Origin: Psammoneis japonica
Taxonomy: Eukaryota
Direction of reading: 5' to 3'
NCBI GenBank assembly: GCA_008632985.1
Contig: QPGO01000039.1
Span: 62,001 to 126,000 of the forward strand
DNA: 64,000 nt
Position numbers and translations under genes: made by a program. Positions 13,930 through 41,833 of the stretch are shown here, one piece after another. The notes beneath the pieces are model-generated. The model was not told the origin of the DNA and searched no databases. It worked only from the letters and a program-made list of their open reading frames with translations. Each line of letters starts with the position of its first letter. The stretch's first letter is position 1.

Positions 13930-14400
13930 TGCTCTCAGCGGGGGGAATCCATTGCAGGCATCCCCTCTCTTTCTCAACAAGCTCCCAGCTGCCTGATTCT
14001 CCAACAAAAGAAAAACCATCAAGACCAGCTCTCCACAATTTGTGAATCTGAGTTTGTTGCTGCAAGGGCTTGCATGGAGGAACAGATTGTGGACCTGCAT
14101 GCCATGCTGCATCACCTTGGCATCCTGACCTGTGATGCCAGCTGTGTGCTTGGTCATGACAACAAGTCAGCCATGGATGGCATCACCACCCTGCACTCTC
14201 CAAGCTGCGCAAGTGCCACACACTGCCCTCCAGTTCCACCATGCTCACAGGCATTTGCCTCTGGCATTCTTGGGCTCTGCTTTGTTGAAGGCTCCCACAA
14301 CTTTGCCAACATTCTCAGCAAACATTGGGGTTGCTCTTAGATCTGGAGCCTCTTCCATCCCCTCATGTTCTGGAGCTCTGACTCTAAAACCTTTTGTCTG
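13930..14400 (+). mobile_element. Ty1/copia RNase H remnant
   Basis: ESEFVAARACMEEQIVDLHAMLHHLG...DNKS...NFANILSKHWGCS matches copia RNase H (SEFVAAR...LRYLG...DNKS...NPADILSKHWGY). Confidence 0.85.
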
Positions 14401-15479
14401 TCTGATGTCAATGTGGCTCCTTCCAGCAAAATGGAAAGTGACAGGATTCGAGCAGGATTTTGGTTGGGTGTGATTGTTCATGTGCGCTGCATGCATCCAG
14501 GGTTTTGCAAAAACATGTTTGTGTGCTGCGGCAGTTTTGTCACACTTTCACACATTCCAGTTTGGCTCTTGGGCTGCACAGCTCAGTCTGCCAGCAGCCC
14601 CTGCAACAATTTTCACACAGAAACCCATCTTCCATCTGACAGCAGCAAGCAAGGCATTGTTGTTGTTGTTTTCACACCCAGCTCTCCTCTTCAACTCCTG
14701 TCATCACAAGCCAGCAGTTTTTTTTTTTCTTGGAAAGTGGATTGGGTGTGCATTTTGTCTGGTTTGCAAAACATTTTTTGAAACAGACCAACTGCTTCAA
14801 CAATGATGAACAAACAGAGCTGCTGCCTGTCTTCTGTGCACATTTTGTGGGGGGGGGAGATGCCTGGTGCAAAAACAGCAAAAGGAGTGAGGTCACAGGA
14901 CCAGTGCACTCACCACCTCAGTTGTGGACTGGCAAGCACTGCAATGTGTCAAAGAAGATGACAAAGAAGCTTCCCAACTGCAATGGTGTGAGCCCCACCC
15001 ATCAATCTGAGCTGTCTTGAGAGGGTCAGCAGACAACAAAGAGTGATGTGAAATTTTCATTTTTTTCTCAAATCAGTGGGTTCTTTGACAAAAATCTAAG
15101 ATTTTTTGTTGAAGTTTCACACAGAACAAGTCTCTTTGACTTGCTTGTCACATGTGTCAGCCTGGTTGACAAAAAAGCATCTCCTGGATGACCCCTGCAG
15201 TGTGGGAGAAAAGTGTGCAAACCAGCTGGGCTTGAAATGCCAGCGTGTCACAGGCTCAAGTTCAAGAAACAGGCTGGCATGTCGCCTCAACGGAAAAATC
15301 TTTAACATCCATGACTTAGGACAATTTTATGTGTGCTGATTTGCAACCTTTTTCGCGAACATTTGGTCCGTCATCTGTCCATCAGAATGTGGATTTTCGT
15401 GACCCTTCAGGCCTTTTTCACCGTGACACAGCACGGCACATTTTTTGTGCCGTCACGCCGTCGCGATTTTGAGCACAAT

Positions 15480-15573
15480 GGAAGGTGGGGCATCGGTTGC
15501 CGACGATTGCATTGGTCCCTTTCGACACTCTAAAGGCTCGAATGTGTCATCGGCGACCGATGCCCCACCTTCC
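15480..15573. repeat. 27-bp inverted repeat with 40-nt spacer
   Basis: ggaaggtggggcatcggttgccgacga (15480-15506) vs tcatcggcgaccgatgccccaccttcc (15547-15573); both mismatches are CpG/TpG. Confidence 0.85.
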
Positions 15574-17323
15574 TTCATCATGAAAATGCCGTCTCTTTTT
15601 TGCCATGGCCGCACCACGCAAGCGTTGAGCGATCTTGCGAGCGATGACAAGGTGCGCACATCTCTGCATGATTCAGTGCTCGTCACTTGAATTTCCATTT
15701 TTCTCACACCAACATCATCAACCGTCATCGTCGTTTGTGCAGCCATGGCATCCAGCAAGAAAAAGAGCAGCGACACAGGAAAGAAAAAAAGTTGTTGTCC
15801 CATTGAAAAGAGAGTTGACAATGCTCTCATTCTTTTGACAGCACACGTCTTGGTGAGCTTTGATGGGAAATGGCCAAATGCAGGAGACATTCACCGTGTG
15901 CTCCAGGTTGGTGGCATTCCAGGCAGAACAGCCCAAGTGACACACCGGATTCAATCCAGAAGGGATTTGGATCCAAAGGCTTGGTTTCATTTCGCAGAAT
16001 GTCCAACGACAATGAAAGGCACAGCCATTCAGCAAAATTTGAATCTGATCCCGATGCTCCCAAATCTCAAGCCCACACTCAAATTGAATCATTCAGGATT
16101 GACTTGTCGGCATGCTGTGTGGTTTGTGTGATTCCCTTGTTGCATCTGTTGATGCTCACATTGCACAATCTGCCGTGAAGTCATGCAACAGAATGGAACA
16201 ATCTATTTTATGGCAACAGCGATTGCAGCGGTGTCAATTTTTTCAACTGCCATTGCAGTTGGCGACATTGCATCTAGAGTTGCAATTTGCAATGTCATCA
16301 TGTTCTTTGAAAGCATCCTCTTCTTCAGACGACTCAGCTGCTGGCATCCATGCAGTCGTCATGGCAAAGAAACAGCTCTCGCTTTTTCTTCAGTGTTGGA
16401 GGGAGAAAAAAAATCTAAGATTGCACGTAATTTCAACACTGAAACACACGTAGAACAGACAGCAAAAAGACGTGCAGGCCAACCCACATTCGCAAAATGG
16501 GGCTCACGTGGCGGCCCTTCATGCCAGCCTGTTTCTTTTGCTTGAGCCTGTGGCGTGTTGCTCATCCGAGGAAGACCAAGTTTTGTGGCATGCTGATGCT
16601 GTTGTTGTTTTAAAATGGCTGTCATCCATGGCATCCCCACATGTGTGTGCCCTTGCCTGCCACACATGCTTGTCTTTTGTGCCTGTGCCCCGCTGATGCT
16701 GCAAGCTCTGAGGGACACAGAATTTTTTCAGGCGAGGAGAGAGAGAGTCGTGAAGTCACAGAAGCAAGTGCCAAGCTGCACTTGAGAACTTGGCATGTTG
16801 TCAGAGCACTCAGCAAGCAAAAGGTGCTGCACATGCTTTGGCAATGCACAGCCCTGAGACACCCTGCTGGGGCACCTGGTGGAGTGAGAAGCTTTCTGCT
16901 GTTTTTTGACGAGGCAAGATCATCAACAAGAAGTGCACAGGCAGCCGGGGAGAACCAATTTTAGTGATTGGTGTGTGGCCAATTGCAAACATCTGATTTC
17001 CACCCCAAATTTTGCCTCTGCTAGCTAGAAGACTTTGCATCAGTGTAGTTGGTGTGGGCAGCAGCATTTCGTTGAAAGAGTTTGTGGTTACACGTGGAGG
17101 TGCCAGATAGATGGCAAAGGACGCACGGTCAAGCAAGATTCATTCGAAAGATTCTTCCACGAGATTCACGGGAAGATTCGCCACACCACGAGCAAAAATT
17201 TTGATCGGTGGATACTGGCCTGGACTGGACACCACATGTTTGTTGTTGGTTGGACGCTGTGCACTGAAGAGGCACGTAGCACAAATCTTGTGTTCGACCC
17301 AATTGACAATACGAAGCCCAATC

Positions 17324-19720: not shown

Positions 19721-19810
19721 AATTGAAATTATATAAGTGAAAGTCATAGACAATAAGTGTTTTGAAACATTTAACAAGGAATGAATTCAAAATGACGTTC
19801 TCGTTCTCGT
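19721..19810 (+). repeat. Dispersed ~100-bp motif, copy 1 (uneroded)
   Basis: aattgaaattatataagtgaaagtcat...gtgttttgaaacattt...gaattcaaaatgac...gttctc; homologs at 26661, 33096, 34400. Confidence 0.7.
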
Positions 19811-19981: not shown

Positions 19982-21652
19982 ATGACACGTTCGATCACAA
20001 CATGTTCCGTCTTGCGGGGCTTGTTCATTTTGATGGTATGTGATTTTGCGAGTGCTGAGAGTGGCATTGTCATTGCCGAGGACATCGAGAACACCATTGA
20101 AAAAAACACTTTGGCTTCCAAGCGTAGCGGCCGTTCCGATTTCCCTGACCTTGCAGGTGCATCTACTCCACCACCTCCGGACCGTCGCCTCGCAGGATCC
20201 GCTATTGGTGAATGGGTTCAAATGGGAAATACAGTTTCGACGCGGAAACGCAGAAGGTTTGAAATGATGGCCTTGTGTAGAAATGGTAATAGGATGGTCG
20301 CTTCTGAGACGCTTGACGGACCCATCACAGCATATCAGTGGAACACCTTGAAGTCTCAATGGAAACGTATGGGTCAAAGTATTCCCGGAATAGCTTATAG
20401 CTCTCAGGTAGCCATGTCGAACTACGGAAACTACTTGGTGACTGCTGCAAGACAGGAAACTGCTCGTGTGTTCAAGTGGGAAAATAGAATGTGGAAACAA
20501 GTTGGAAAGAGCATCGACATGTGGGTTGGCACAGGTTTCGATCGTAGGTTTTTCGGCGAACTCGCAATGTCGGATGATGGCAAAACCATCGCGATTGCAC
20601 TCTACGTTTTCCGCACAGTTCGTGGCGAAGTTAAAATCTTCCACTGGAATGGATCCAAATGGATCGAGGAAGCTCATCTATTCGAAAGCCGAGACTTGCT
20701 AGGAGTCTTTGGACGGTTTGGAGCAAGTATAGCAATGTCCGGTAATGGAAAGGTATTGGCGGTGGGGTCTCCGATTGCTCTTGCTCACAATTCCAAAAAA
20801 CCAGTGGGTAAGGCCCAAGTGTTTGAGAAGCAGGGGTCTTCCTGGAAACAAAGAGGTAGCGACATCTTCGGAAAAGGAAAAGACTATGGATTTGGTACAT
20901 CAATTGCCATGTCTAGAGATGGAAGACGCATTGTCATCGGCGAAGCTACCCATTTGTCAAATGGATATGCTCGCGTCATGGAGTGGGACGTTTCCACGGA
21001 CGATTGGATAATGGTAGGAAACGACATTGAAGGAGAGTATAAAGCAGATTTTGGAGAAAAGGTGTCCATGTCGAGTGACGGCCGACGGGTAGTTGTGTCT
21101 GCCTTTGATTTCAGAGATCAGGTCAAGCCTGACAGAGGGTTTTCTCGGGTGTTTGAGTTCAACGGAGACTCATGGCCACAGCTGGGCAATGCGCTACCCG
21201 AAGGTGGACTAGGGCTGTCCATGGCGGGCAGCGGAAATCGTCTTGCCATATTTGAAAGCACCGACATTCGAGTTTACAACTACGTCGACCTGGCTGCTGA
21301 TGCTCGTGTTGTCGAGATTAAAATCAAACCCTTCAAAGGGAACAATGCTGGGATCAAGATTTCAAGGTCTCGCAAAGAGGAAGTTATAAGCGTCGGAATA
21401 CGTACAACCGACGATTTTGATGCCAAAAAGGTCAATGTGACTTCCATCAGGTTTGGTCCGGACCAAGCAAAGCCCGTTGGTTCACTAAAGAAGGACTTTG
21501 ATTTCGATGGCATCAAAGACATGATTCTCCGATTTAAGTTGCACCACACAGGGTTTAGCCCCGGCCGTCAGCAAGCCTGTCTCTTTGGGGAGCACAAATC
21601 TGGGGAGGAGATAAAGGGGTGCCAATTTGTTCAAGTCACCAAGGCCAAGTAG
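19982..21652 (+). CDS. Secreted beta-propeller (FG-GAP-like repeats) with prokaryote-like C-terminal domain
   Basis: Signal peptide, RRL motif, repeats such as FGASIAMSGNGKVLAVG and WKQRGSDIFG; tail VEIKIKP...FDA..V....IRFGP...DFDFDGIKDMILRF; no intron needed. Confidence 0.85.
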   Translation: MTRSITTCSVLRGLFILMVCDFASAESGIVIAEDIENTIEKNTLASKRSGRSDFPDLAGASTPPPPDRRLAGSAIGEWVQMGNTVSTRKRRRFEMMALCRNGNRMVASETLDGPITAYQWNTLKSQWKRMGQSIPGIAYSSQVAMSNYGNYLVTAARQETARVFKWENRMWKQVGKSIDMWVGTGFDRRFFGELAMSDDGKTIAIALYVFRTVRGEVKIFHWNGSKWIEEAHLFESRDLLGVFGRFGASIAMSGNGKVLAVGSPIALAHNSKKPVGKAQVFEKQGSSWKQRGSDIFGKGKDYGFGTSIAMSRDGRRIVIGEATHLSNGYARVMEWDVSTDDWIMVGNDIEGEYKADFGEKVSMSSDGRRVVVSAFDFRDQVKPDRGFSRVFEFNGDSWPQLGNALPEGGLGLSMAGSGNRLAIFESTDIRVYNYVDLAADARVVEIKIKPFKGNNAGIKISRSRKEEVISVGIRTTDDFDAKKVNVTSIRFGPDQAKPVGSLKKDFDFDGIKDMILRFKLHHTGFSPGRQQACLFGEHKSGEEIKGCQFVQVTKAK

Positions 21653-21979
21653 GAAATGCACAGACTCTAATTTTTAGTCAATGATGATAGGACCGATTCT
21701 CCTCGCTGCGCATTCTACGCATTACTGTATGCAAATTATGCAAAGATATACCTACGTAGCCGAACAATTGTCGGTATTATTCTGGATCTGTCATTACAAT
21801 GCATTTTGCTGTTTTGCAGCCACAAGTGCAATCCTCACCAATGACACGATACCACCTTGAATTTTCGATCATCGCCTGTGGGACATAGATCGGAGGCGCT
21901 CCATCTGGCTGTTCTCGCCAAATTCCACAATGTCCTAGCACTGTCTGATACAAACGTGCCAGTTCTCTCCAGAATTTCG

Positions 21980-23913
21980 TCCCTAGTGACTGGCCTTCAT
22001 GAAAACAACGAAGACCTCGAACAGAGCACGAAAACAACTGCAACCTTGCTGAGTGCCAGTGTTGGGAAATAAGCAACGCTCTTCGTCGCTGAGATCTGCT
22101 CGTCGTGCAAGCGAGGCACGGATGCCCGGTAATTCGTACTGATGAAGAAGCTGGAGTCCCTTCAGGAGCGATGCAGTTTCACCGTAAGCAGCTCGACGGA
22201 AGCAAATCTTTAGGTGCGCGCGAACCCTGCTCTTCATTATGTCATCCTCAGTCAAAAGACCAACATCTTTTCCATCGGGATCAAGCTGTCTGCCATCATA
22301 TACCATCGCACACACCCACCTAAATGCAATTTCGGCACCTTCCTCATCATATTTCTGACAGTATCCCATGTTGATGTGCGCCCAACATCGTGGTCCGAGG
22401 GCGAATTCTCCAAGAATTGTGCCAAAACAAGCGTGTAGTCACCTCCGTTCGTAAAGTAAGCTTGTCCAGTGAGAAGCGGTACAATGGATGGGTACTTGTC
22501 GAAGCGTTGTACTTGCCCATCCCTCATGATACTGACGTTGTTCCTCTTGCCGTTAACGAGTTCGGTGACAATCCATCCGCGTTCCAAGTCCTTATCCTCA
22601 CCCACATACAGCACAAACGATATCTGGGTGAGATAATCAATTTGATATCATTTGACGCTTTCGCTGTTTACACGTCGTGCATTCAGCGTGAGCGTTGTCA
22701 TTGGTACCACCAAATAGTCCAACCAAACACCAATGTTGGTTTGGAGAAATCCATGCATCACTAAAACTCATGCCTGCAACACGGAATAATCCGTCACTCC
22801 GTCGTTTCGTCTGTGCCACTGGTCAAAAGACGATTCCTCCCCGATACAGTGCCTCGCGAATTGGTCAACAAATAGTGGAAGATCTCGTGGAGCTCTTTCA
22901 GTAGTTTTCCATCAGGATCTGGGTGGTCTTCGCGAAGCCATGGATGCGAAATAAAGATAATTTTTCGCCACTCGCGCCAAGTGGTCCGTGCACGCTTGCA
23001 ATTTGGGGGGATCCATTCTTTCATCTTCATAAAGTCTTTGTACGGAATCGCGGCAACTTTTTTGGTCTCTGCACGCGTGGTAACGTCCAATTCTCCACTC
23101 TCCGCAGTGGGTCGTCCTTGTCAAGCAATAGACAGCCCGGTAACGAACGCATCGAATCTGTGAAGAACGGCCCAATATTACCTGGCGGCTGAGATCAAAC
23201 ACATCCACATATACAAGCCCATCAGTAGGAAACTCTAGAACTAGCACACTTCCGACGCTTCGATCAACTTTCCATTCACAGGCAAGGAGTGGTCCCCCGC
23301 TTGCATTGTCGAGCAACTGATGTGAAGCTTTTATTACACAAGCCACTGCCATTGAGAATGTCACAATATCTGTCGGTGGATTGGGCTGCTGCCCAAGCTC
23401 GCCAAACAAGGCGGAAGACAAAGAATTCCAACTCTCCGCATCACTGAAGGAGCCTCCGTCTTTTGCAGCTACCTCGCTTGGAGTGTTGTACACCAGCGCA
23501 GCTTTCTCATGAATTTCACGCTCAGTGACGACTGTTGACTTGTTAGGATTATCAACAGTCACAATCCAATCTTCCCGAGCGTCGGAGCGCATGACATTCC
23601 AAGTACGCCGCGCCGCATCGGGATTAGGCTCCGGTTTCTCTCCAGTGCGATGCCGCCAATCGTACTCTCGGATGATAAAACGGCTTTTGGATTCAATAAC
23701 TACGTCAAGAAGTGCAAGGGTTCCGGTTTCAACACCATCAAGAGATCGGCGATCTATTTTCTCTGGCAGGCGAACAAAATCGTCTCCGGCCGACAGAACA
23801 CTCCACGAAGATGAGGAAGAGCTGCCTGCATACTGACGCGTGTGTCGCAAACTACTTGAAGGCTCAGGGCAATCATATTCCAACAGCCTGCCTTCGGAAT
23901 AACAACGACGCAT
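21980..23913 (-). pseudogene. HET-like domain gene with several frameshifts
   Basis: Motifs in successive frames: FISHPWLREDHPDPDG, IGVWLDYLVVP, LERGWIVTE; needs at least 3-4 frame changes with no obvious introns. Confidence 0.6.
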
Positions 23914-26660
23914 GATGCTGTGTACGGTGTTAACACCCCCTCTTCAGAAGTGAGGTTGATGCGATGCACCGGTGGACCGGTGGAGCAAAAACAACACCAC
24001 AAAGATAAGTCCGTCTGCGCAGTCTGTCAATCAGCGTTTAGTGACGCTCACTAAACAATTTTAATAGCACCCCACATAGTTCGAATTTCTACGTGCAACA
24101 TTCGAGGTTGTTTTCGGCGCGAGAGCTCGCACTCAACAATAACACGTGTTGAAGCACGTCCCGACATTGGCAATGGCAAAAGAGAAAGTTGATACAAGCA
24201 ACGAGATGCTAAATGAAGTCACGCTGTTAATGTATTCATTGAATGTAGTGTATTAATGAGTTTTAGTAGCTACAATCTCTAGACAAGTCGACCGCCAGAT
24301 GAATTCATCATGTTGGTTGCATCTGCCTCGCACTTCGCACGCGGTAGATCACGACAGTCTACTAAATTTTTCCTTAAGATGTGCGCACAACGAGCGCACA
24401 GCAGCGCAATGTCAGCCAGACGACTGTTGTGCATTTTTTGCGATTTGCGCGACAAATTGTCGTCGACGCCGACGATGACGATGACAATTTTCAGACGCTG
24501 ACAGAGGACGACTTTGCAACAGGCACTTGACACATCAATCAATTGTGCTGTGGAGAACACACACATGCAAAGAAAGTCCCCCGGATGAACTCACAATCGT
24601 TCGACAATCGAGTGCATTTTAAACGATCGTCGAAAAACAGAGCTCCTTGTTGGCATGACGTTTTGCTTTCGAACTGAGGTTGCTCCCGGGGACTTTCATG
24701 ACTGAATGCGTTCGTAAACTTGACAAACTGAATGTCTGCAATGACAAAAGACTCTGGGACACGTCGCTGTCATCGCTGTCGTTGCAACAATGCACCACCG
24801 TCACATCGCCTGTTTTTGGCGACGAGGCGCATGGCATGCTGCGCGTTTCTCGTGCAGCAGAAAATCCTGAAAAATCAAATTGTCATGCCTGCACCCCTTT
24901 GTTCTGCGAATGCCTTGATTTGGTTTCCATTTCTTTCCTTGTTGTCTTTTTTTAATCACGGAAATCAGGGGCATGTCAAACAAGGAATTCATCTGTCATG
25001 CGTTTTCACCAAACAATTTCTGTCACCAAATGATTTGCATGGCTGCTGGCGTGTTTGGGGGTTTTGGTGAACACTGGACAGATGCGCAGCAGGCCCCTCT
25101 CAAGTGTGGGGATGGTGCCTGGCATCTTCCAGGTTGATGTTTTGATGTGTGGCACAAATGACCTCAACACCTGCTGTGTGATGAAGCAGCTTGGTTGGGG
25201 GCAGGCCTGTGCCACCTCTGAGTGCCCCTCTTCCTTGCTGCCTTCTTCTGACAAAGTGTGTGCAACAATGTTGTTTTTGCCAAATGGGTTCAAACACTCA
25301 CATCAATGCAGCTTTGTTCACCAGCCATCAAGGAAAGAGGAGCTCTGCATTGGCACAGACAGAGGGTGTGTGCTGGAACTTCTGCAGCCCCATGGCACCT
25401 GGAGATCATCAGAAAATGATGCCCCTTGTGTGCACCACATTTGCCAACAACCCATTTCCTGCCCCCAGCTCATTTGGTCTGATGCTTCCATCTTTCTCAT
25501 GATGAAATTTGTCAGCTGTGCACATGGACAGAATTGGTCAAAACCTTGCAAGGCTCTCAACAATGCATTTCATGGAAGATTCTCTCTTGTTGCTTGTGGC
25601 TGTTGCCCCCCAAGAAAAGCTCCTCTCCACCACACCCCCTGCTGCTGCTCTCTTCCACCCTGGTGTCTTTGTTGGAAACTTTTCTTTCCCAGTGCTCTCT
25701 CCAAACTTCACAGCTGGTGGCTGCATGGTTGCAAACAGCGCATCACAGTGGGTTCTTTCCTGGTGCCCAGCTGCTTTCCACCAGTCTCTTGTGCCAGACA
25801 GCAAGGTCACGCAAAAGATGGCTCCACAAGGATGAAGCTCAGCAGCCGTCAGTGGCTTGTGGTTGCCTGCAACAAAATCTGCTGCACACTGTTCTTGGCA
25901 ATGCAACAGGGCTTGTGTGGCATGGCAAAGCATGCCAGCTGTTGCTTTTTGCTGTGGCAAACAGGATCAAAACTGGCGTTTTGTTGTGCCCCTGCGGCGC
26001 ACTGGCAGGTGGACTTTTTCAGCTGGCACAACTGAAGGAGACGTCCCCAGCCACCCCAACATGGCACACCAGCCACTGCAGGCCCCACCGGTGGATGATG
26101 CAAGAGTTGCAGTGCAGTGGACCCGTCTCTGTCATGCAGATAGCAGAGAGTGTTACAATCTTTGAAGACGTGCCCAAAAAAGCATTGGCAATGCACCAAG
26201 CACTCTCTCATGAGGCAGTTTAGGGGATGTCTCCAGCCAACACAATTTTTATGTGCAAAAGAGTTGTTGAGGCGTCTCTTGCTGCCATGTCATTGGTTGA
26301 ACAATGTCATGGTGGAAAACACAAAGTGCAAGGTCCTTGCCCCCCCCCCCCCCCCCCGCCTCAGAACTCATGAGTGTGTCGATGCTGAAATCACCATGCA
26401 TCACGCACAAACTCCGGACACTCAAACTTCCAAAGCTGATCAAACTTTTAAATCTGCTCCCTCTCTCACAGTCACTGACTCACAAATGAAACTTTGACAC
26501 ATCATCATCACTTGATCAGGGTGGTCAGTTAAAACAAAAGAATGTCCTGCTGCACAACGCATCATGTGTGCATGCCAATGTGCACAGCACGCACCCACCA
26601 GGGCACCATCCATGTCCTAAAAAGTGCCGAGCATGTTGAGCAATTGACAAATGGACAGAG

Positions 26661-26780
26661 AATTGAAATCACTTGCATGCAAGTCATTTCAACTGCAAGT
26701 TGGGTGTGAGTGTTTTCCAACATTTAAAAGCTGAAACAATTCAAAATGACCCCTTCAGAATTCTCTTCTTGTTCTCATCT
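26661..26780 (+). repeat. Dispersed ~100-bp motif, copy 2 (eroded)
   Basis: aattgaaatc...aagtcatttcaa...gtgttttccaacatttaaaag...aattcaaaatgacccct...ttctcttct. Confidence 0.7.
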
Positions 26781-28467
26781 CTCAAAGATGCACGTGTTCA
26801 GTGTGAAACTGACTGGCATGGGTGCTGTGAGCAGTTTGGAGAATTGACAAAGCTTCCGTTGGTGGTTGTTGCTGAAGCATGCAGAATTTGTGCTGAAGTC
26901 CATGCAAAAAAATTCTTGAAAAAGAAGAACAAGCATGCAAACCACAAAGAGTCAACACCAATCATGCTCCACTTAGAAACATTGCTTGACATGCTGAAAA
27001 AGGGTGTGCCATTGGTTGAAATGGCCTGAATGGTCTTGGCAGACCTGGCAGAGCACCAACAGAGAATGGCGACATCAGTGGCATGAGAGCATGAACAGAA
27101 ACACACACAGGAGCTGCTGCACAAGTGGGCAGCTGATGTCAAAAAGTGTTCTTGCTAGACAAGTTGTTCAGCAATGAGAGCACACAAACATTTCTCACAT
27201 GGTCCAAGCAGTGCAGTGGAAATCAAGTTGTCATTGGGAAATGACTTGTGGTGTGTGTTGTGTGCACATGTGCTGGGAGATGTGTTGCATCAATTTGTGA
27301 GGTTTTGCATGCTGGTTTGACCATTGCATTGTGTGTGTTGCTGCTGAGCCAACTTGGTTGTTTGGTCAACAATTGCATGTGACCTGTGTTCGCTCACTCA
27401 GCACACACCTTGCTTGTTTGAACATCATGTGCTTGGCTGCAGTCGTTCGTTGATGGCTGGCACAGTGTCATGATCAACAGGTTGTGTGCTGTCCAGCAAT
27501 CTTTGTGTTGGAGTCTGCACTTGTGAGGAAAGGTGGAAGTGGCATGATCAGTTGCAACTTCATTTTCACCGTGGCTTTGGCTCCAGAGGGTGGAGGAGTC
27601 AAGGTTTTGATGCTCTTGGTTGAGCCAAGGTTCGCTCTTGAGGCTGTTCCAGGTTGTTGCGCCAGCATTGAGGGTCTTGAAGAGGTTTGCTGGGTTCATC
27701 AAAACTGGCGCATGTCCAGTCATGCAGGCAGCTCCGAGTTTAGACTAATGAAAAAAAGAAGAGGAAAAGGAGGAGGGGAAGGAGAGAGCAACATGTTCAA
27801 TGTGCACACATGACGCCCAGACGATCAGTGCTTCTGACGTGCACAGCGCAGTCATCTGCTCTCCAGCTGGCCAGCTGGTCACGGCTCTCCACTCCAGAGC
27901 AAACACTCTAAAGAACAACAACACTGCATGATCCATCTAAATGCATTGTCCACTGGTTCGTTGCTCACAGAAATGCAGAAAAAGCACACACCCACAGCTG
28001 ACTAACTCCACAGTCAACACACAACAGCACACTCCCCAAACATTTTTTCATCACTTTTCTGCAACCAGCTCCACATTGTTCCATCCATTCCCTCTCTAGA
28101 GACCTGACTAGATGCGGAAAGTTCCAGGATCTGATTTCCCCATGTGAGTGAGGAACATCAAAAGACATCTGTCATTTAGAATGTGGGCCTGGAAATGCCA
28201 CTGCAAGCTTTGGCAGCAAACGACATTCACGCTGGAAAATGACGGGCAAAACAAAAATGTGAGTGGAACAACGTGCACAATGACATGGGATCACATGACA
28301 CAGCACACTCACCAGGGCACCTTTTGGAGGTGGAGTTGAGTCACCTCACCAATTTTTGTGCCCCCATGTGCCGTCAGCGGCTCGTGGCGTCCGTGCATTC
28401 AAGAGGAGGCGATGAGCCCACCAACACAAGCCTCAACCTCTCCCCATTTTGCCCTGTGCAAAGCCTG

Positions 28468-29180
28468 GACTCGTTGGTCACTGCCAAGATCTCCCAAAAT
28501 AATGTGGGTGACATTGTGTCTTAGATGATGAAGAGAGTCGATTGCAGAATAGGAAAAAAGGCTCGTCACAGACCAGATGCCTGCACGCATGAACGAGACG
28601 CACAAAAAAAGGCTCGTGAGGTGTGCAAGTTTCGTCAAAACGAGTCCAACCATCAAACAATTCGAACATGCTCACAGGATCACCTTTTTTGGACTGTGAT
28701 GAGACTGTCTGACAATTGCCAACGTCACAAGTGTCCTCCAGGCTCCATCGCATCATTTTGTTCTAACAGCACGCACTTTCCAAAAATTGTGACGGCTGAA
28801 TGCACGACATGCCATGATTGTGTGACTCGTTGGTCGCTGCCAAGATCTCCCAAAACATCATGGGTGACATTGTGTCTTAGATGATGAAGAGAATCGATTG
28901 CAGAACAGGAAAAAAGGCTCGTCATAGACCAGATGCCTGCACGCATGAACGAGACGCACAAAAAAAGGCTCGTGAGGTGTGCAAGTTTCATCAAAACGAG
29001 TCCAACAATCAAACAATTCAAACATGCTCACAGGATCACCTTTTTTGGACTGTGATGAGACTGTCTGACAATTGCCAACATCGCAAGTGTCCTCCAGGCT
29101 CCATCGTGTCGTTTTGTTCTAACAGCGCGCGCTTTCCAAAAATTGTGACGGCTGAATGCACGACATGCCGTGATTGTGTG
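28468..29180 (+). repeat. Tandem duplication, 2 x ~356 bp
   Basis: Units start gactcgttggtc(a/g)ctgccaagatctccc at about 28468 and 28824; duplicated ORFs at 28525 and 28881. Confidence 0.95.
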
Positions 29181-29981
29181 CCGACCAAGCCCCCAAGAAG
29201 GATGTCAAGCACGTCACAAATCCACATTAATGCACACAAAGGGTGCACCAAAGGATGCAGAGTGGGGTGAAGCATGAAGATCCCAAACGGATGCGCTTTG
29301 GCTGCACCAACGACTTGAAAAACATGCCAACATCACAGATGTCTTAATCGACCGCATGAGACGATCAATCCACCTTGCAAGCTGCAACAAAAAACAACAA
29401 TGATCTTCGGCAAACAGGGAAACAAAATAAAATGAGAAAACGCACAAAGAGCTTGCCTTGGCAACGTTGTCGACCATTCAGATGCAACCCGCAGCGCACA
29501 GTGATCGAGGCACGAGTGAGTCGTCGAGTCGATGCACACAACCGTTTGCACCGTGTGTTGCAACCAAAGCCCCCCAGGAAGCCAAGCCAACATGTCAACC
29601 TCTTTGCAACAGCAACAGAAAGAGATCACACATGCAAAATGCATCTGCCCCACGATGTTTGCCATGCCGAGACACATCAAAGTGCAATGTGCATGGCCGT
29701 TTCTTGTGGTGCAATGTGCCAAATCGGGATCATTTGAGTGGAATGAAGGAAATGAAGAGGATTCCCCGTCAGGCGTCCTTGTCAAATTTCTGCCAAACTG
29801 GACCGTTGCTTTCCACTTGTCCTTGTCAAAATGGAGTTGCGTCCTCATCAAATTCTGCACAAGTTCCAGTGCATTTCCCAGTGCAGTGACACCAAAACAC
29901 AAAACACAGCAAAGAAGAGTGCAACAACCAAGCTTGTGCAGCCTCTCCTTTCGTCCCCACTGCACCTCCAAACACCAAAAG

Positions 29982-31372
29982 ATGGAAGAACACCGCAAGT
30001 GCCAGCATTGTTTGAAAGATTTCGATTCGGACAACATGGCGGCAAATGCTCCTGTCTGTGGTTTGGAATGTCCCCACATGCTCTGCCAACTGTGTGTGAT
30101 GAACCTGTGTGTCAGCACCAAACAATCAAGTGACAGCAATGCCAAGAGCATCAAGTGTCCCTTTTGCAACAAGCCCAAATCATTCTGCATCAATCGAGGG
30201 GCCAATGTCTCGTTTTCTGCAGTGTGCCAAAGGCGTGGGAAGACTGTTGAAAGGAATTGTCCATTTGCCAAGAACGCCTGGCCAAGCGACAAAGACCCGA
30301 AGACACTGGTGGCGATGGGTTGGAAGATTTGACGACAAGCTCAGTGCAGGCTGCAAGGGGAGGAGAAGCTGGGGCCGAAACAGAAAACCAAAAAGCCCCA
30401 GAGAGCACCAGCAACGAGCAAGAAGAAATGGAGGATCAAAAGCCAGCAGCAGTGGACACTGCTGCGGCTGCTGACCAAGATGCCCAAGGCGAAAATGGGG
30501 CAGAAGAAAACGGAATTGTGGCTGCAGCTGAAGTGGGAAATGTGGAAAATGCTCCTCCCTTCAACATGGACACCAGCCAACCAGCGTCCAGCAGTGAGGC
30601 AAATGCTCCCAAAAATGGAGCTGCAGCTGAAGTGGAAAACACTGGGGATGTTGCTGCTTCCAATCCCGCCCACCCTTCTTCCAATGAAGCAAACAACCCC
30701 ATTGAAGCTGTTGCCAGTGCAGCTGCAGGTGGTGCTTCCAATCCCAGTCAACAGGAAATTCCAAGCGTCTCCAATCAAAACAGTGCCGCAGCTCATTCTG
30801 TCCAATCTGAGGAGGAACAAGAGGCCTTTCTCCAGGTTGCCATTGCCAATTCCTTGGGAATCCAACAGCAACAAGCTGCTTGTCCAGCCCAGCAACACGA
30901 ACAGAACAGCAACAACAGCGAGGAAGAGGAGGGCGACCGAAAACCTGCAGCAGTGAACAGAGACACCCAAAATGCTCAAGCAGCTGCTGCAGCAAGTGGG
31001 TCTGGGGACACAGAGCACAATCAAATTCAGAACGCAAATGTTTCTGTTCCCAGTGTGGCTCAAATGCCAGATCCAGAGGAGGACACCAATGACAACAAGC
31101 CACCCACTGAAGGAGAGCAAGCCCTGCTTCAGGTGGCCATTGCCAGCTCTCCAGGTGCTCCGGTTGGTGAGGGTGCCAATGAGGACACGATTGCCTTCCA
31201 ACAAGCAACTGCGCTGTCTGCAGGTGTCACTCTGCCAAAAGAACAGCCCTCCATCTATGCCGCTGGGGCTGGCTTGGAGCAGGATCCCCTCCTGATCCAG
31301 GATGACGAGGAGGAACAGACAGAGACAATGCAATTGCAGCAGGTGATTGCGCTGAGTTTGCAGAGCCGTTGA
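29982..31372 (+). pseudogene. RING finger plus four UIM-like motifs (putative E3 ligase), disrupted
   Basis: CQHC...CPHMLCQLC...CPFC; acidic linker; EEEQEAFLQVAIANS, EQALLQVAIASS, AFQQATALS, MQLQQVIALSLQ; frame change and TGA near 30190-30250. Confidence 0.7.
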
Positions 31373-33095
31373 TTTCATGTGATGCATGGGAATTTGGTTG
31401 CAGCATCACCGGGAAGAATCACATGAGACTTGTGGGAAGCACAGGGTTCTGGACTGAAGCAATGTGGGGGGACCTCATCAGTGTGCTGTCAGCAAGCCAA
31501 AAATCCCACAAATGTGACTTGCATTTGTGGCTGTCGATGCACATGGTTGCAGCAATGACTCCACTGCACTGTTGGCACTTTTTTTTGTTCAATCATGTTG
31601 TTCATCCAAGGAAGCATCCGCAACTCAATGAGCACCAACCCGCAGGCAAGATGGTGATGAGATGCCATTTCATCAGTCTGAGATGTTCCCTGCCAGCTAG
31701 TTCGTTAGAACACAAGCTTGCAATCTTCCTCCTTTTTCTTGAATCATTGGAAATCCACCTTAAAAACACCCGTGACAATTGGTGGTTTACAAAACTTGAC
31801 AAAGATCCAGGGACACTTTTGGCAGGAGGTTTTCACCTTGATAAAGTGCAGGGCACCCAGCAAGGACACGTGTCCCTCTGTGGGAGATCAGGTCATCGTG
31901 TGTGTTGCCTTTAAGCTGGAAAGATGGCCTGGTCCCAACTGCACTTAAATGTCACGATGCATCCAACCCACCAGAGTTTGGGTGTGCTTGGAGGGCTCTG
32001 TGACTTTGGTGGGAGGGCAAAACAAGGAATCCTCTTGTTCTTATTCCACCAAGAGAATGGCACAACAATTGGAGCAGCAGGACATGTTGCTGCAATGCTG
32101 TTGTTCCAGTGTGCGCACATCTCTTTGGTGGGTGTCACCACAAGCACTGTCCATGGTGTGATCGGTTGCCTGTCTTTCAAGTTTCATGCCATGCAATCCC
32201 ACCACCTTTGCCAAACATGACTCACTCTTCAGGGAGAGCACTGAGGGCCCAATGGATTTAAACAACTGTGACACTCTGGCAGCATTCTGGGCACATGTCT
32301 CATGTCTCACTGGGTTGCATCATAAAAAAAATTCTCACTCCACATGTGTCCTCCATGACCACATGACCACCTTCCATCATCAATCAATGAAGAGAAAATG
32401 TTTCCATCATCAACTGACAGACAGAGAGAAAAAGACACTGGATGACTGATGGCAGCACAGTGCAAGCAATGCACAAGCATCCACTCACAACTTCTAAAGC
32501 AACAAGAGAGAGGCTGTCTTGTCTCAATTCTCAAGAATCCATGAAGTGATGTGTTTTCTTTTCCCTCACTCTTCAGAGATGCCATCTCCTCCCACTGCAC
32601 TTGCATCCAACACACAGCTCAACATGCACAGTGCAGCAATGTTCATGATGATGATGCTGGAGCAGTTCTTCAAGGAGAAGCAGAGCGGGATGGATGTGTG
32701 GCACCAAGTTGAGGAAAAAGCTGGATGCAGTGTCAAGGATGGTGGCCTTGTCACTCAAGTGCAGCTGTTGTGGGGATGAGTGCTTTGTGCTGGGTTGCAT
32801 TCAAAGAGGTGCAGATGTGCTGCTGGGAGTGCTGCCAGTGACATGCTGGGAGAGCTGACTTTGGGCACTGCTTTGCTTGGCTCCTCTGCAAATGAGGCAT
32901 GTCACGCAGCTTGATGAGCACTCAATGAATGACCCTGAGAAGTTGGTTCTTGTCCAACCCAAATTGAGTGCATGAATGCAATTTAGTGAGCAACCCTGGT
33001 GGCAGCAGCAAAGCTCTGCCACAGCAATGCATTGCATGCCCAAGTCACCATGCCTTTTAAATGCTGAGCATGCCCAGCAATCAACAGATGTGGTG

Positions 33096-33205
33096 AACTG
33101 AAAGCACATGAGTGAAAGTCATTTCAATGACAAGCATGTTTTCAAACATTTGAAAAGCAAAAGAATTCAAAATGACCTCTTTGGATTTCTCTTCTCATTC
33201 TCTCG
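33096..33205 (+). repeat. Dispersed ~100-bp motif, copy 3 (eroded)
   Basis: aactgaaagcacatgagtgaaagtcatttcaa...gttttcaaacatttgaaaag...gaattcaaaatgacc. Confidence 0.75.
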
Positions 33206-34399
33206 CACTTTGAGCATGAAAAGATGCTGCCTGTTGCATGCTCTTAGAATGCTCCAAGAGATTCTGCCAGAGAGGAGCAAAATTGAAGCATCGCAAAAGT
33301 GTGACACCTTCCAGCCAAACCTCTTGGATGTCTTGGAACCATTCATGCAACACAAGACTGTGGTTCAGAACAAAAAAAAATGGAAACTCCAATGTCCAAG
33401 CTGTTGATTTGCTGTGCCTTGTTTGATGGCAGTCTCAATGTGATGATGATGACTCAAGCTTCTTGGCAAACAACAATGAACCGCAGAATGGCTTGGTTCA
33501 TTTTTTCTTGGTTTCATGATTCCCTCTTTCACATTGGCCATTGTGCACTCATGCTGTGCATGAAACAAACATTTTGTCACTTGCACCCCACTGCCATGCA
33601 TGTCATGTTTAAAGCACTGGAGTGGATGAACTTCACAGACAAGCCAGCAGTCACGACAAGTTGTCTTGGCATGTTGGTCTTACAGGAGTTTGACTCTGTG
33701 GTTGTGATGGAAAGAAGATTCCCAAGGAATGTGCAGAGAATGCTTTTGCTTTCACTGGGCATGGAAGGGTTGGTGGCGGGTTGCTTTCTCAGACCGTGCT
33801 GGCACTCTGAAGTCATGCCACTGATGGCAGACAAGCTGCAAAACAATTTTGTGAACATGTTTTGAATGTTTGCACAGTGAACAGCAACAAGGACATGACG
33901 ATGCTTTGTTGTGACTCAAATGTGCAGCGTCGCATTGTCCGGATTCTGCACCTGCTCCTGTGTTGCTCCATGTGCAGGCATCGCACTTTCTCTTTCCTGT
34001 TTTTGCCTTGCTTCTTGCTCGAAGAACCTCTTTTGTCTGCTGGTGCCAAGCTTTGCATCCATTCTTCTGGGGGTGCAGTCAAACAGCTTGACAAAAGCCC
34101 ATCTCAGACTGCCTGCGATTGGTTTCTTGAGCAAGCAAAACAAATCTTTGCCCATGGCGCCATCATGCGCTGCACTCTGCAACTCAACCGTGGCTGCTGA
34201 CTCCTCATGAATCAGGCATGACAGCTTTGAGATGGCACTGGAGCTGAGTCTTGAGGAGCTCTGCACAGGTCAGACATTTGCTCATGAGCTTGACTTGAGC
34301 AGAGTGGAGGAACGGGGGTCATTGTCAGAATTGTTGGCCTTGACATTTTCCAGCTCGCTCAGGCAGATGCCACGATAATTTTTGAATAACGCGGGGATA

Positions 34400-34490
34400 C
34401 AAAGTAATTTCAACCATTAAGTGTTTTCAAACATTTAAGACTGAAAGAATTCGAAATGACCCCCTTCTGAGTTCTCTTCTCGTTCTCTCG
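34400..34490 (+). repeat. Dispersed ~100-bp motif, copy 4, at the repeat/gene boundary
   Basis: aaagtaatttcaa...gtgttttcaaacatttaagactgaaagaattcgaaatgacccc...ttctcttctcgttctc. Confidence 0.75.
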
Positions 34491-34533
34491 TTTTTTGCAA
34501 AACCATCAACCAGCAAAGCTAACCAAAATCAAA

Positions 34534-35947
34534 ATGAAGCTTGGACTGCCTATCTTATTCTTATTCTTGGTTAGTGCATGTGGCAATGGCGAGCAAGGTA
34601 TGTATAATACATTGATGTGCATTGATTGTTTCTTTTAACAATGTTCCATCATTGTTGGTGGGTGGGAGCTCCCGCACCGTAATCGGCACACATTTTACAC
34701 ATTGTAGGGTTCGCATTTCCGATGCACCGAGTGCTTGCCTGTTTTCTCAACTCGCTCTTTCCACATGCTTTCTATGTTTCGAAGAAAAACAAGGATACAT
34801 CCTTCTAAACATAGAAGCTTGCAACAGGTATTGTGCATTTGAAGCATGGGAAGTAGAGCGAAAGACATGCGATGAAACCTCTGATTGCAAGCGCATGTGC
34901 TCGAGCTTGCAAAACAATGGACTTGTCCTTTGGAACAGACTTGGATCAATGGATGAGCTCCAGAATAGTGAGGTTGGACCTAATGCAGTCGTTGCAGGCT
35001 CCTCTCGTGGCATTACCTTCGTGCCGGGAAAGCACGGGAATGGATTTACTTCCGGACACGGCAAAGCTGGTGTGAGTCTATTGTTTTGACATTCATTGAG
35101 AATTGACTGGACTCGTACATATATGTCGCTGTATCACTCATCACTTTTTCACTTTTAAAAACTCATATTACAGCCCAACTTTGGCTTGTGGGAAGAGATA
35201 AACCCGAATTTTCACTTGGCTGGCACGGTGGAGTTTTGGTGGAAGCCCGCACGCAATTACGATGAACGCAATTCCCCACCTGACGACATCTTTGTATCCG
35301 GTACATGGCAGAGGGATTGGATTCTCCCCTTCCAGCTACTGTACCGGTGGCGGCGAAGCAGCGGAGGCTTGGGCGGATTTGATTTTCAGGTTACGGCAGA
35401 AGAAGATAACAGAGATCACTACTTATATACCGGTAAAGTGGTGGAATTCCAGGCTGGAGATTGGGTACACGTAGCATTTGTCTGGGATATGAACGGACTG
35501 CCTGTTGAGGGTGGACACCGCTATGGTGTATTTGTAAATGGCCAATACTACCCACTGATTGACGCCGAATTTCCCGGGCGTAACATAGATGTCACAATGA
35601 GAAAATCAGAGGGCGCGTATTTTTCCATGGGATACTATTCGGCTGATTATAATAATCAGCTAAATGGTGTTCTGGACAACGTCAAGATCTGAGATCACGC
35701 AAAGACTAGCTTTGATTTGAGTACAGAACGCAAGCTTACGAGCATTGAACCATGTTATAATTATTGTTCCGATGGGAGCTGGAAAACACACCTCGAGAAG
35801 TGCTTGAAACACTGTGATTGTTATTTTGCAGGCAAGAACAAGAAACGTACCGGTTTTCGTTTAAATTGCAAGAAGCAGTGCCGTAAAGAGAAACAGGCTG
35901 GAACCACTCTTTGTAAGAACATGTGCCGAAAATTGGCAAGTGGTTAG
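34534..35947 (+). CDS. Secreted LamG/concanavalin-like protein with Cys-rich flanks; 3 exons (34534-34597, 34815-35071, 35174-35947); in-frame TGA at 35690-35692
   Basis: Signal peptide MKLGLPILFLFLVSA; GT-AG introns keep frame; GTVEFWWKP, WVHVAFVWD, VFVNG, GVLDNVKI*DHAKT; frame continues 84 codons past the TGA. Confidence 0.75.
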
Positions 35948-37887
35948 GATCACTCCCCATTCAGTTCCTTCGGCAAACTGCCGTGAAAGCATGGGTGCCG
36001 GGAACCAAAAATAATGCATAGATAAGAATACGAAAAGTGGAGAAGAATTTCAAGTAGAAAGCAAAGAGCGTCTCACAACCCGTGTCTCGTTAGCTTCATC
36101 TCGCTTCTTCTTTGGAGCGGAGCACTTGTGGAGTGGTTCCTTGCCTTTGCACATGGCTTATGACTTATCCAGAATTGTGTGCAATTATGCGGTCACGTTC
36201 TCGGGTTGCATAGATTATGAATTTGCTCCAAACGCTCCATGAGGGGCGCTCCTGGCGAAGGATGGCTTCTTGGAGCGTTTGAGCCGGAGTTTTCTGCCTA
36301 TCTCCAGAAGCGCCAAGACGGCGACGATCGCTAAACTGCCCATGGCGGTCGTCAAACAGCACAAAGATATCTTTGGCATAGGATAACGTACAGAGTTTTC
36401 ATATTCGTCACATGGCAAAAAGATAGTGGAGGACTTGAATCGCTCCCCTGGAGGACGCCCAACATGCGCCTGAGAAGAGTCAAGTTGTTGAGTTCGATTT
36501 CACAGCTAGATCATAAACAATCCGAACCGTTTTTTTGCCCTCTAGAGTACATCATAGATACCTCCAGGAATCAATTGGTGTGGGGATGTCGAGTGAGTCT
36601 GAAAGAGAAGCCCAAAGATTCTCTGTTGACGGATTCTGCGAAATCTGCCACAATGCGTCACAGCTTTCTCGGCTTGTACTTCTGGCAAGGTCAGCAAGGC
36701 GACACCCCAGTGCACACGTCAAGGCAGCAAAAGGTGGTGTGATGGTTGGAAAAATGAAACCATGGGAAACGCACTGGTCAACAGAGCCAAGCCAATGAAC
36801 AGGTTCATTTCCCTCATCTCTGGCCTTCCCCTCACTTTGGAATCACGTTTTCCAATGCGACCGCAGCCAGTCAATTAAGGAGACCTTGCAAAAAGGGGCA
36901 ATGCAGGAGGTTGGATGCTCAAATTTCAAATTGTTGTGCTCAAAAAATCCTGTGGGACTGCGGTGGGACTGTCCGGCAGAACTGCCCACAGGACAATCGC
37001 CATGACTCAACATGCAACATGGTGGTGCCAGTCACAGTCGACAAAATGGAAACAATTTCCCAGGCAAAGCTGCTCAACATGAGCATGCGAGTCATCTTTT
37101 TTGATGTGCAAATGAGTTGAGTGTTGTCCAAGTTGGGTCCCACATGGTCTCGGCTGTGTCCAGCAAGCTCACAAAAACATGGCACCTGCAACAAGGGTTG
37201 CGGGAGCACCCAAGTTTGCCACCCATTCAAAGGCATTGTCCACCAAAAATCGGGCTCAACAATGGACAGTGCCACCCCACCTCTGATGCTGAACACATTT
37301 GATGACAATTCTGGAACAGGAGAGACATTTTGCTCTTTGCAAAAAAACATCAACACTGGTGGCAGTTTTTTCTTTTTTACAACCCATCACACATGTGTTG
37401 TGCAGTGCATGCAGGGACAAAGCCTGCCAACAGTGACATGGAATCAAAGCTCCTCATTGTGTTGCTGTTGTTGAAGTTCAAATTGCAGTGGCCTTTAGAG
37501 TTGGGTCACAAATTTTAAAAAATTGCAAAGCTGAAAATTCCCAAACAAGTCACTGATCAAGCAAGTCCAAGTGTTGGAAAGCAGTCTGCATTGACTGCCA
37601 TGTGTTCATGTTGGTTGAGAAACAGCAAATGAGACAGGTGCAATCTTCACAGGAGTTGTGCAACATGATGTGTGTTGTCATTTTGTCTGAGAAATGGGGG
37701 CAAGAATGCTGTGACACAGGCCACAGCACTGCTCCGCTGTTTCCTCTCTTTGTCAAAACTGTCATGTGTGGCTGGGCATTCAAGTGAAATGAAGTCATCA
37801 TGGCAAGGGTGTTTGTTGCTGTGCAAAGCCACGTGGGTCCAGTGTCAGCCACAAACAAAGCACTGGGTTCTTTGCATGTGTTCCACA

Positions 37888-41829: not shown

Positions 41830-41833
41830 CAGA

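Follow-up and report, generated by a model that had tools for sequence, protein, structure and literature searches.

The present analysis concerns a 64,000-nt stretch of Psammoneis japonica DNA (assembly GCA_008632985.1, contig QPGO01000039.1, positions 62,001 to 126,000 of the forward strand; hereafter the window, to which all coordinates refer), in which gene islands alternate with blocks nearly free of the dinucleotide TpA, and in particular a zone at 24340–24950 that is poor in TpA yet rich in CpG. The patterns observed support TpA loss as a process separate from, and faster than, CpG loss. We lean towards an account in which two distinct transition processes, one at TpA and then a slower one at CpG, acted on repeat-derived and presumably silenced DNA, with the CpG-rich zones being the younger repeats. 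The comparisons below show which way the changes ran, that they arose independently in each copy, that TpA and CpG loss are asymmetric, and that CpG retention goes with copy number.

Dinucleotide composition of the focal and related zones

Expected counts were taken from base composition unless the gene-block rate is named (observed/expected ratio, o/e, of 0.565 for TpA and 0.974 for CpG in gene blocks of the window). The focal zone at 24340–24950 (611 bp, GC 0.478) contains 6 TpA against 41.6 expected (o/e 0.14) and 44 CpG against 34.8 (o/e 1.26). At the gene-block rate 23.5 TpA would be expected (Poisson P = 1.9e-5), and none of the 487 windows of 611 bp lying inside gene blocks had 6 or fewer. 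A first-pass annotation made from the sequence alone had called this stretch CpG-rich with about five TpA, four of them in the context YTAR (Y, pyrimidine; R, purine); its overall description holds, with the count revised to six TpA, of which three are YTAR (CTAA, TTAA, and TTAA) and the others GTAG, CTAC, and GTAA. TpA occurs at 24345, 24360, 24363, and 24375 and then not until 24620, which makes the boundary abrupt rather than graded, and for 24376–24950 the gene-block rate predicts 21.8 TpA and 32.5 CpG, compared with 2 and 41 observed.

The same annotation had listed three similar zones, and by counts all of them are real: 15340–15720 (TpA 1 observed and 22.4 expected, CpG 28 and 24.0), 29460–29560 (TpA 0 and 4.6, CpG 11 and 8.3), and 55500–55850 (TpA 1 and 17.9, CpG 24 and 26.2), although the TpA deficit of the 101-bp zone at 29460–29560 is not significant when taken alone (P = 0.076). 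It had also named local GC content as what might account for such zones; GC is the same as elsewhere and so provides no explanation. As a separate observation, 15340–15720 and 24440–24880 are both rich in CGTCG or CGACGATGAC-like strings, and BLAST between these two segments gave no alignable similarity.

Segmentation of the window

Over the whole window o/e is 0.30 for TA, 0.59 for CG, and 1.5 for CA/TG. A sliding profile together with two-state hidden Markov model (HMM) segmentation separated gene islands, with TpA o/e 0.56 and CpG o/e 0.97, from nine TpA-low blocks totaling 34,650 bp, or 54% of the window, in which o/e is about 0.03 for TA, 0.0–0.8 for CG, and about 1.9 for CA+TG; they have lost some 90% of their TpA and as much as about 95% of their CpG. 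The blocks given by the segmentation are as follows.

1–400: TpA-low block, cut by the window start; CpG-low at 1–700
7101–16950: TpA-low block; CpG-low at 7376–10400 and 11001–15275, CpG-normal at 7101–7375, 10401–11000, and 15276–16950
24376–34375: TpA-low block; CpG-low at 24876–28200 and 30526–34350, with a CpG-normal island at 28201–30525
36576–41000: TpA-low block; CpG-low at 36876–40925
41826–44800: TpA-low block; CpG-low at 41826–44625
46801–48725: TpA-low block; CpG-low at 46676–48700
54801–56100: TpA-low block, CpG normal throughout (1.3 kb); overlaps the 5′ 435 nt of an F-box/WD40 open reading frame (ORF)
58376–60725: TpA-low block; CpG-low at 58601–60550
62276–63700: TpA-low block; CpG-low at 62326–63675

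From gene blocks to TpA-low blocks, TA falls from 40.3 to 3.7 per kb (−36.6) and CG from 52.8 to 17.1 (−35.7), while CA rises from 74.9 to 111.3 (+36.4) and TG from 73.5 to 111.9 (+38.4). The total of pyrimidine-purine (YpR) steps is nearly constant (241.5 per kb in gene blocks vs 244.0 in TpA-low blocks), as is GC (0.466 vs 0.489). This balance, in which losses of TA and CG are matched by gains of CA and TG, indicates transitions within YpR steps, and because CA and TG gain equally, both strands were hit. The discrete blocks have sharp limits and the gene islands are normal in composition; one block contains a copia reverse transcriptase and two zones are multi-copy, as described below. Comparison of the window with itself found only 7 repeat pairs, and the blocks are mostly unique within the 64 kb.

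Order of TpA and CpG loss

The two losses are strongly asymmetric. Segmentation assigned 7,550 bp to TpA-low, CpG-normal sequence and 425 bp to the reverse state, and among 256 windows of 250 bp there were 11 with low TpA and high CpG and none with high TpA and low CpG. Fifteen block edges have a CpG counterpart; at a resolution of 25 bp the TpA limit lies outside it at 12 of these, coincides with it at 1, and lies inside it at 2. When only offsets of at least 100 bp are considered, TpA was farther out at 7 and farther in at 2. The annotation had placed zones of this kind at block edges; they also occur elsewhere, 28201–30525 and 10401–11000 being block-internal. Taking gene blocks as the reference, TpA-only zones keep 10.5% of their TpA and deep blocks 8.8%, whereas 80% and 18% of CpG survive, respectively, so G/C sites are spared in the former and not in the latter. 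TpA is at a floor of about 10% whether 80% or 18% of CpG is retained, so TpA reaches its floor first. Across 17 edges the CpG share was 0.19 outside, 0.157 in the first 125 bp inside, about 0.09 from 125 to 750 bp, and 0.02–0.04 beyond 750 bp, in a profile aligned on the TpA boundary that favors a sharp TpA step and biases CpG toward a gradual appearance.

Flanking context

Survival in deep blocks depends on the flanking bases, and in opposite senses for the two dinucleotides. For TpA it was 0.3% in RTAY, 4% in mixed contexts, and 38% in YTAR, and for CpG 27% in RCGY, 17% in mixed contexts, and 12% in YCGR. Of the 128 residual TpA, 84 are YTAR, a share above that of gene blocks (196 of 1171; Fisher 2.7e-30), and most blocks show this bias. 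Among tetranucleotides the survival ratio was 0.20 for CTAG, 0.012 for GTAC, and 0 for ATAT, with TAG contexts among the most spared; GCGC survived at 0.86, RCGY being the best CpG context and YCGR the worst. TpA survival fits a model in which the A of each strand is hit when a pyrimidine follows. In the product classes, RTAR/YTAY yielded YTGY over YCAY at about 2:1, a ratio that uses coding DNA as its baseline and serves as a lead only. The proposal that TpA loss is not a by-product of deamination at methylated CpG is supported, in that TpA loss occurs with CpG intact, reaches the same floor of about 10%, and has the opposite flank dependence, and in that the TpA-only hypermutation measured in Bigelowiella natans came with essentially no changes at G/C.

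Repeat comparisons and direction of change

Three comparisons involving sequence of the window give the direction of change.

33059–33205: short dispersed repeat, with a copy at 26622–26776 (both in TpA-low blocks) and copies at 34401–34490 and 19721–19796 (in gene blocks)
7609–7934 and 13408–13735: old repeat pair, 70% identical
11734–12600 (+): degraded Ty1/copia-type reverse transcriptase (RT) remnant, recognized through its phmmer homologues

In the short dispersed repeat the gene-block copies retain TA or CG where the copies in TpA-low blocks read CA or TG, and these latter copies differ from each other. The gene-block copies are untouched, which suggests that duplication alone is apparently not the trigger. 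The old repeat pair has 17 CA/TG double differences, compared with 1.98 expected from column shuffling (maximum 8 in 2000 shuffles), so that each copy decayed independently from TA or CG; its single-step CpG differences, 5 CG/TG and 4 CA/CG, show no strand bias. The change is therefore from TA to CA or TG and from CG to CA or TG, and independent in each copy.

The RT remnant returned 1425 phmmer hits at E ≤ 1e-3 (best 3.9e-38) among 1.84 billion representatives, and the top named relative, at 49% identity, belongs to the diatom genus Grammatophora (UniRef). Pfam RVT_2 is matched at E ≤ 1e-3 by all 8 long homologues examined, 6 of which exceed the curated cut-off, while for the remnant itself Pfam gives no RVT_2 hit even at E ≤ 1; a word-indexed search for longer proteins, before the exhaustive phmmer search, had given no hit among 1138 candidates. 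All 4 of the well-aligned columns in which at least 60% of homologues have tyrosine read cysteine (TGY) in the remnant, as do 6 of the 7 in which tyrosine is the commonest residue, and the 289 residues include 0 Tyr and 14 Cys. Of the 7 columns with consensus arginine (≥60%), 4 read TGA, TGA, TGC, and TGG, 2 retain arginine with the codons AGG and AGA, and one is GGA; the changes CGA to TGA, CGC to TGC, and CGG to TGG match CpG decay. Changes of K to E, I to V, L to P, and V to A are found at T|A junctions in the remnant. Among 36 core mismatches, 20 can be reached by TA/CG decay alone and 10 by other transitions alone. Judged by these substitutions, at least the block at 7.1–16.9 kb holds a hypermutated Ty1/copia element.

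Copia copies with the appearance of hypermutation exist in other public records as well. When the 150 top RT homologues are considered, 95 have coverage of no fewer than 3 of 5 conserved Tyr columns, and 10 of these carry Cys or His there with 0–1.8% Tyr overall (P0014, P0021, P0027, P0046, P0055, P0056, P0060, P0067, P0101, and P0136). As a weak negative control, 14 loci related to ATG9 in metagenome contigs, at most 56% identical, had the signature in 1 of 274 windows of 500 bp.

Read depth and copy number

The public run X1 was used to evaluate whether the sequence is real and how many copies of it there are, on the evidence of exact 31-letter words at about 58x. X1 contains 70% of the sampled words of 22001–30000, and its contigs match the TA- and CG-free blocks, three with no differences, one with 2 in 2593 bp, and one with 10 in 1372 bp. 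The latter 10, in a deep block, are all transitions, 9 of them at YpR (CG/CA, CG/TG, or CA/TG), while 7 of the 11 differences in a gene-block contig are transversions. The agreement with X1, a run that is not fully independent, rules out assembly error and makes miscalling of modified bases by nanopore sequencing improbable. Mutation driven by 6mA or 5hmU was likewise considered and set aside. Biased repair of T:G mismatches, of the very-short-patch or MBD4 type, was rejected by reasoning only, as it would deplete TpG and not TpA.

Word depth was taken over 20001–36000, where the single-copy baseline is about 58. The features that it concerns are the following.

24376–24875: focal TpA-low, CpG-normal segment given by the HMM segmentation
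24343–24957: candidate discrete 615-bp multi-copy element, limits uncertain, from one X1 contig joint
28468–29180: tandem duplication of 2 × 356 bp, 94.7% identical, inside the CpG-normal island

Genes and deep blocks alike have a depth of about 58 (52–66 in 25341–26408 and 30147–32282), so the old relics are single-copy. The bin at 24273–24806 has a depth of 2117, about 36 times single-copy, followed by 334 in the next bin; depth is 159–360 in 26943–28010 and 640–1000 in 28011–30146. In 18 TpA-low bins the CpG share rises with depth (Spearman 0.63, P = 0.005), with a mean of 0.147 in 7 bins of depth at least 300 and 0.061 in 10 bins of depth below 100. The annotation had inferred that TpA loss is faster than CpG decay, and this agrees with CpG retention rising with copy number; its other inference, that erosion spreads farther from transposon boundaries, fails for the focal zone, which is itself a multi-copy repeat with an abrupt TpA limit. 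Depth was 33 in 32412–36000, compared with 58–66 in the rest of 20–32 kb; that interval spans a block edge, and the drop is possibly a difference between haplotypes.

Two X1 contigs bypass sequence of the window, the first running from 24342 directly to 24958 (depth 32.1) and the second from 27742 to 29805 (depth 35), both about half the baseline and both weak evidence in that the shorter side has 30 and 21 letters, respectively; the focal and 28.2–29.8 kb zones may therefore be insertions on one haplotype. The 615-bp candidate has several internal deletion variants among its copies in X1. An 11-nt perfect inverted repeat (24296–24306 and 24985–24995) provides alternative limits for it, and apart from this pair no convincing terminal repeats were found for the focal element or 26.8–30.0 kb. 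An exact 34-base word of the focal element had no match in the metagenome contigs. Among the best-supported X1 variant rows none at high depth restores TpA in the focal zone, which suggests that the focal family was amplified after its TpA loss.

The tandem pair differs at 19 sites, 16 of them YpR-to-YpR (9 CG/CA, 3 TA/CA, and 2 CA/TG double differences) and 3 other, and X1 includes a variant with a single unit (joint of 28800 to 29159). Nine CG/CA differences against 3 at non-YpR positions in 357 bp indicate that CpG decay is under way there, far above background.

Genes and open reading frames

The long ORFs of the eukaryotic window encode ATG9, a family-C G-protein-coupled receptor, DAGAT, a DAGK/YegS-like kinase, an F-box/WD40 protein, a GDSL lipase, and an FkbM methyltransferase. 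Among the 120 ATG9 homologues listed, the top hit has 57% identity and that of the diatom Leptocylindrus danicus, the sole entry labeled with a species, 43%; the nearest ATG9 cluster is dominated by oomycetes. Together with the Grammatophora relative of the RT remnant, these hits point to a photosynthetic stramenopile, probably a diatom. The nearest atlas clusters of the DAGK/YegS-like ORF at 44793–46268 (+) are all cyanobacterial, as expected of a plastid-derived algal gene, and the receptor ORF has internal 24- and 27-bp tandem repeats at 6226–6342. Rfam and tRNA scans of the window found no rRNA, tRNA, or other Rfam family.

Among 120 block ORFs of at least 100 aa there was no Pfam hit at E ≤ 1e-3, save one sub-threshold RING match. 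A RING-finger-like ORF at 29520–30332 (+), with a weak hit below the cut-off and no Tyr, lies in a TpA-free stretch; next in that stretch, at 30251–31372 (+), is an acidic ORF with one Tyr and three motifs resembling ubiquitin-interacting motifs by eye. Together the two ORFs look like a hypermutated former gene. Blocks without TAA and TAG keep only TGA stops, which leads to long overlapping ORFs on both strands, for example 29333–30340 (−) and 29520–30332 (+), and the window has 167 stop-to-stop ORFs of at least 90 aa. In TpA-low blocks, which lack TAA/TAG stops and Tyr codons, spurious ORFs can thus trap gene callers while transposon proteins escape Pfam.

Proposed mechanism and alternatives

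The first process would be a TpA-specific A:T-to-G:C hypermutation turning TpA into TpG or CpA on either strand, most likely by enzymatic deamination of adenine in DNA of the kind measured in Bigelowiella natans. It would be fast, hitting T-A-Y and sparing YTAR, and would saturate at about 10% residual TpA. The second and slower process would turn CpG into TpG or CpA, most likely through deamination of 5-methylcytosine (5mC) in methylated repeats. CpG-rich, TpA-poor zones would then be younger multi-copy repeats in which the first process was completed, in place or in a master copy, and the second has barely begun, and old single-copy relics would be those that lost both TpA and CpG. The enzymes, the methylation, and the silencing trigger are what we infer here.

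Several observations weigh against this account. Depth was obtained for 20001–36000 only, and the zones at 15340–15720 and 55500–55850 lie outside that interval. No high-depth variant restoring TpA was seen in the focal zone among the best-supported X1 rows (140 further rows exist), and the TpA poverty of the focal zone is probably family-wide and inherited rather than acquired at the locus. The survival percentages use coding DNA as their baseline, not the true ancestors of the blocks. A recognized transposon protein is found in one block only, most blocks being without any recognizable protein. X1 is possibly the source sample, with its platform off record, and it excludes assembly error better than an artefact of chemistry. 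Lastly, all 12 single-step YpR differences of the tandem pair are confined to the same strand across its two copies (two-sided binomial 0.0005). C to T and A to G changes on one strand would be unexpected from spontaneous 5mC deamination, and the changes at C and A may share a mechanism.

This last observation speaks for a single strand-specific enzyme of the ADAT2/TadA type deaminating both A and C, with T-A-Y a far better target than Y-C-G, in which case the uncoupling would be kinetic only and CpG methylation not its cause. Both targets favor a 5′ pyrimidine (T-A, and YCGR survival of 12% vs 27% for RCGY), and CpG o/e of 0.00–0.13 where a protein is still recognizable implies very fast CpG loss. 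ADAT2 of amphioxus and trypanosomes acts on both A and C in DNA, as cited in the main text of a preprint on B. natans (10.64898/2026.01.13.699255). That preprint also reports, however, that only 1 of 231 mutations in the hypermutable regions of B. natans was at G/C. The strand bias comes from one 0.7-kb locus and the older repeat pair lacks it (5 CG/TG vs 4 CA/CG). A strict requirement for G after C is moreover a prediction of methylation and not of a TadA-like enzyme, and we consider a single dual deaminase improbable.

A rather less improbable alternative, though still an unlikely one, is that age is not the variable and that TpA-only zones keep CpG for lack of cytosine methylation, as active elements or promoter-adjacent sequence might, the TpA process following another and wider mark. 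An ORF on the minus strand (22912–23943) has the focal zone upstream of it, CpG o/e in that zone is 1.26 with no trace of decay, an intact F-box/WD40 ORF has its 5′ end within 54801–56100, and the TpA limit lies outside the CpG limit at 12 of 15 edges, all of which would be consistent with such a mark. Within 28201–30525, however, 9 of 19 tandem-pair differences are CG/CA, so CpG is decaying there. CpG retention also tracks copy number, but unmethylated active elements would give the same correlation, and on this point the two readings are not cleanly separable.

It could also be that TpA erosion passes out of repeats into the unique DNA beside them, and over a greater distance than CpG decay, comparable to the flank leak of fungal repeat-induced point mutation (RIP). 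The gene relevant here is one of the long ORFs.

55666–56541 (+): F-box/WD40 ORF, intact, its 5′ 435 nt in the TpA-low block 54801–56100

This ORF has 3 TpA in its first 435 nt and is still open, with a homologue 73% identical, and the CpG share falls gradually inside blocks at the 17 edges, as leakage would predict. Alignment on TpA edges, however, makes the CpG profile look gradual in any case. Protein mismatches with the homologue are about as frequent in the TpA-low part (32 of 122) as in the normal part (24 of 98), and TA/CG decay could explain 5 of the 32 and 6 of the 24. Given in addition that the focal and 28.2–29.8 kb zones are multi-copy rather than unique flanks and that TpA density shifts abruptly at the focal zone, we give leakage little credence as a general explanation; spread into unique DNA is possible at 54801–56100 only.

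Least probable of all, and already largely refuted, is that no mutation occurred and that the pattern reflects an artefact of sequencing or assembly where bases are modified, or DNA already poor in TpA and CpG on arrival, through foreign composition or selection against TpA. The TpA-poor state of the focal family is apparently common to its copies, as DNA arriving in that state would be. Against this, X1 contigs reproduce the blocks at about 58x, three comparisons agree on polarity and on independent resolution to CA or TG, the YpR total is conserved, and the deep-block polymorphisms in X1 are themselves CG/CA, CG/TG, and CA/TG.

Comparison with known systems

The closest parallel to the proposed TpA process is in B. 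natans, for which an ADAT2-like deaminase has been proposed (Mettrop et al., bioRxiv 10.64898/2026.01.13.699255, April 2026). According to the main text of that preprint, 231 of 302 nuclear mutations in 15 mutation-accumulation lines fell in regions of giant-virus and virophage DNA, and 230 of these 231 were A to G or T to C, all at TpA; the rate was about 6e-7 per site per generation, about 1000 times background, and only part of the lines showed it. It further reports 124 TpA-depleted clusters spread over about 95 Mb and an enrichment of RT and DDE domains among TpA-depleted genes, and its main text is without mention of CpG or flanking context. The likeness to the present window lies in the change of TpA to TpG or CpA on either strand, in its regional occurrence, and in the footprint of low TpA with high CpA+TpG; with the thresholds of the preprint (Rho TpA ≤ 0.43, Rho CpA+TpG ≥ 1.52), 34 of 64 windows of 1 kb pass here and form 4 clusters. 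Several differences are apparent as well. The lineage is probably another one, B. natans being a rhizarian, whereas the named relatives of two genes here are diatoms; 54% of the window is affected, as opposed to 124 clusters in about 95 Mb; the targets here are a long terminal repeat (LTR) retrotransposon and short multi-copy elements with no viral gene recognized, as opposed to the integrated viral DNA that the preprint describes; and the older parts here also lose CpG. Relative to the B. natans account, the window is new in the order of TpA and CpG loss, in its flank rule, in its far larger scale, and in its probable lineage. A literature search, with subscription journals largely outside it, found no TpA-specific DNA hypermutation beyond that preprint and none in diatoms.

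Fungal RIP is similar in being a regional transition hypermutation of repeats in a dinucleotide context that degrades transposon genes and may affect neighbors. RIP consists of C to T changes mainly at CpA, creating TpA and AT-rich DNA (see also PMC2621366). The window runs the other way, with TpA down from 40.3 to 3.7 per kb, more CpA, and GC hardly moved (0.489 vs 0.466).

Decay of CpG at 5mC, as in vertebrates and plants, likewise turns CpG into TpG and CpA with matching gains, here in repeat-derived blocks only, but it cannot remove TpA, and YCG was lost more than RCG. CpG o/e goes down to 0.00–0.13 in deep blocks, lower than in vertebrate bulk DNA. In the diatom Cyclotella cryptica methylation has been described as mainly at CpG and on repeats (PMC5124317, in part), which would fit 5mC deamination as the slower process if the lineage here is a diatom.

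ADAR and APOBEC resemble the present case in producing deamination-type transitions concentrated in mobile elements. Editing of RNA or cDNA marks one strand, however, while CA (111.3 per kb) and TG (111.9 per kb) are equal here, and APOBEC acts on C. ADAR favors G after the edited A. ADAR-type editing fixed by retrotransposition fails on strand symmetry and on this 3′ preference, TAG contexts being spared here. The natural substrate of TadA/ADAT2 is A34 after U33, followed by C in tRNA-Arg(ACG), and this substrate matches the T-A-Y preference that emerges from the flank rule. The 64-kb window contains no TadA/ADAT2 gene.

Implications

We suggest, tentatively and as something short of probable, that a TpA-directed defence by DNA adenine deamination, so far reported from a single chlorarachniophyte, operates also in a diatom-like stramenopile and has a large part in shaping the genome there, with LTR retrotransposons and short multi-copy elements as its targets. 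It would hit T-A-Y and leave YTAR nearly immune, would be done long before CpG decay, and may share a strand-specific deaminase with the CpG changes, while elements exhausted of TpA would still amplify and so escape. The TpA process is separable from CpG decay in space and time, the flank rule narrows the search for the enzyme, and the finding that TpA-exhausted elements stay multi-copy bears on how transposons escape from such a defence. If confirmed, half of a region would have been rewritten with GC unchanged, invisible to scans based on GC or CpG, and TpA hypermutation would be a widespread eukaryotic defence or mutational process rather than a curiosity of one alga.

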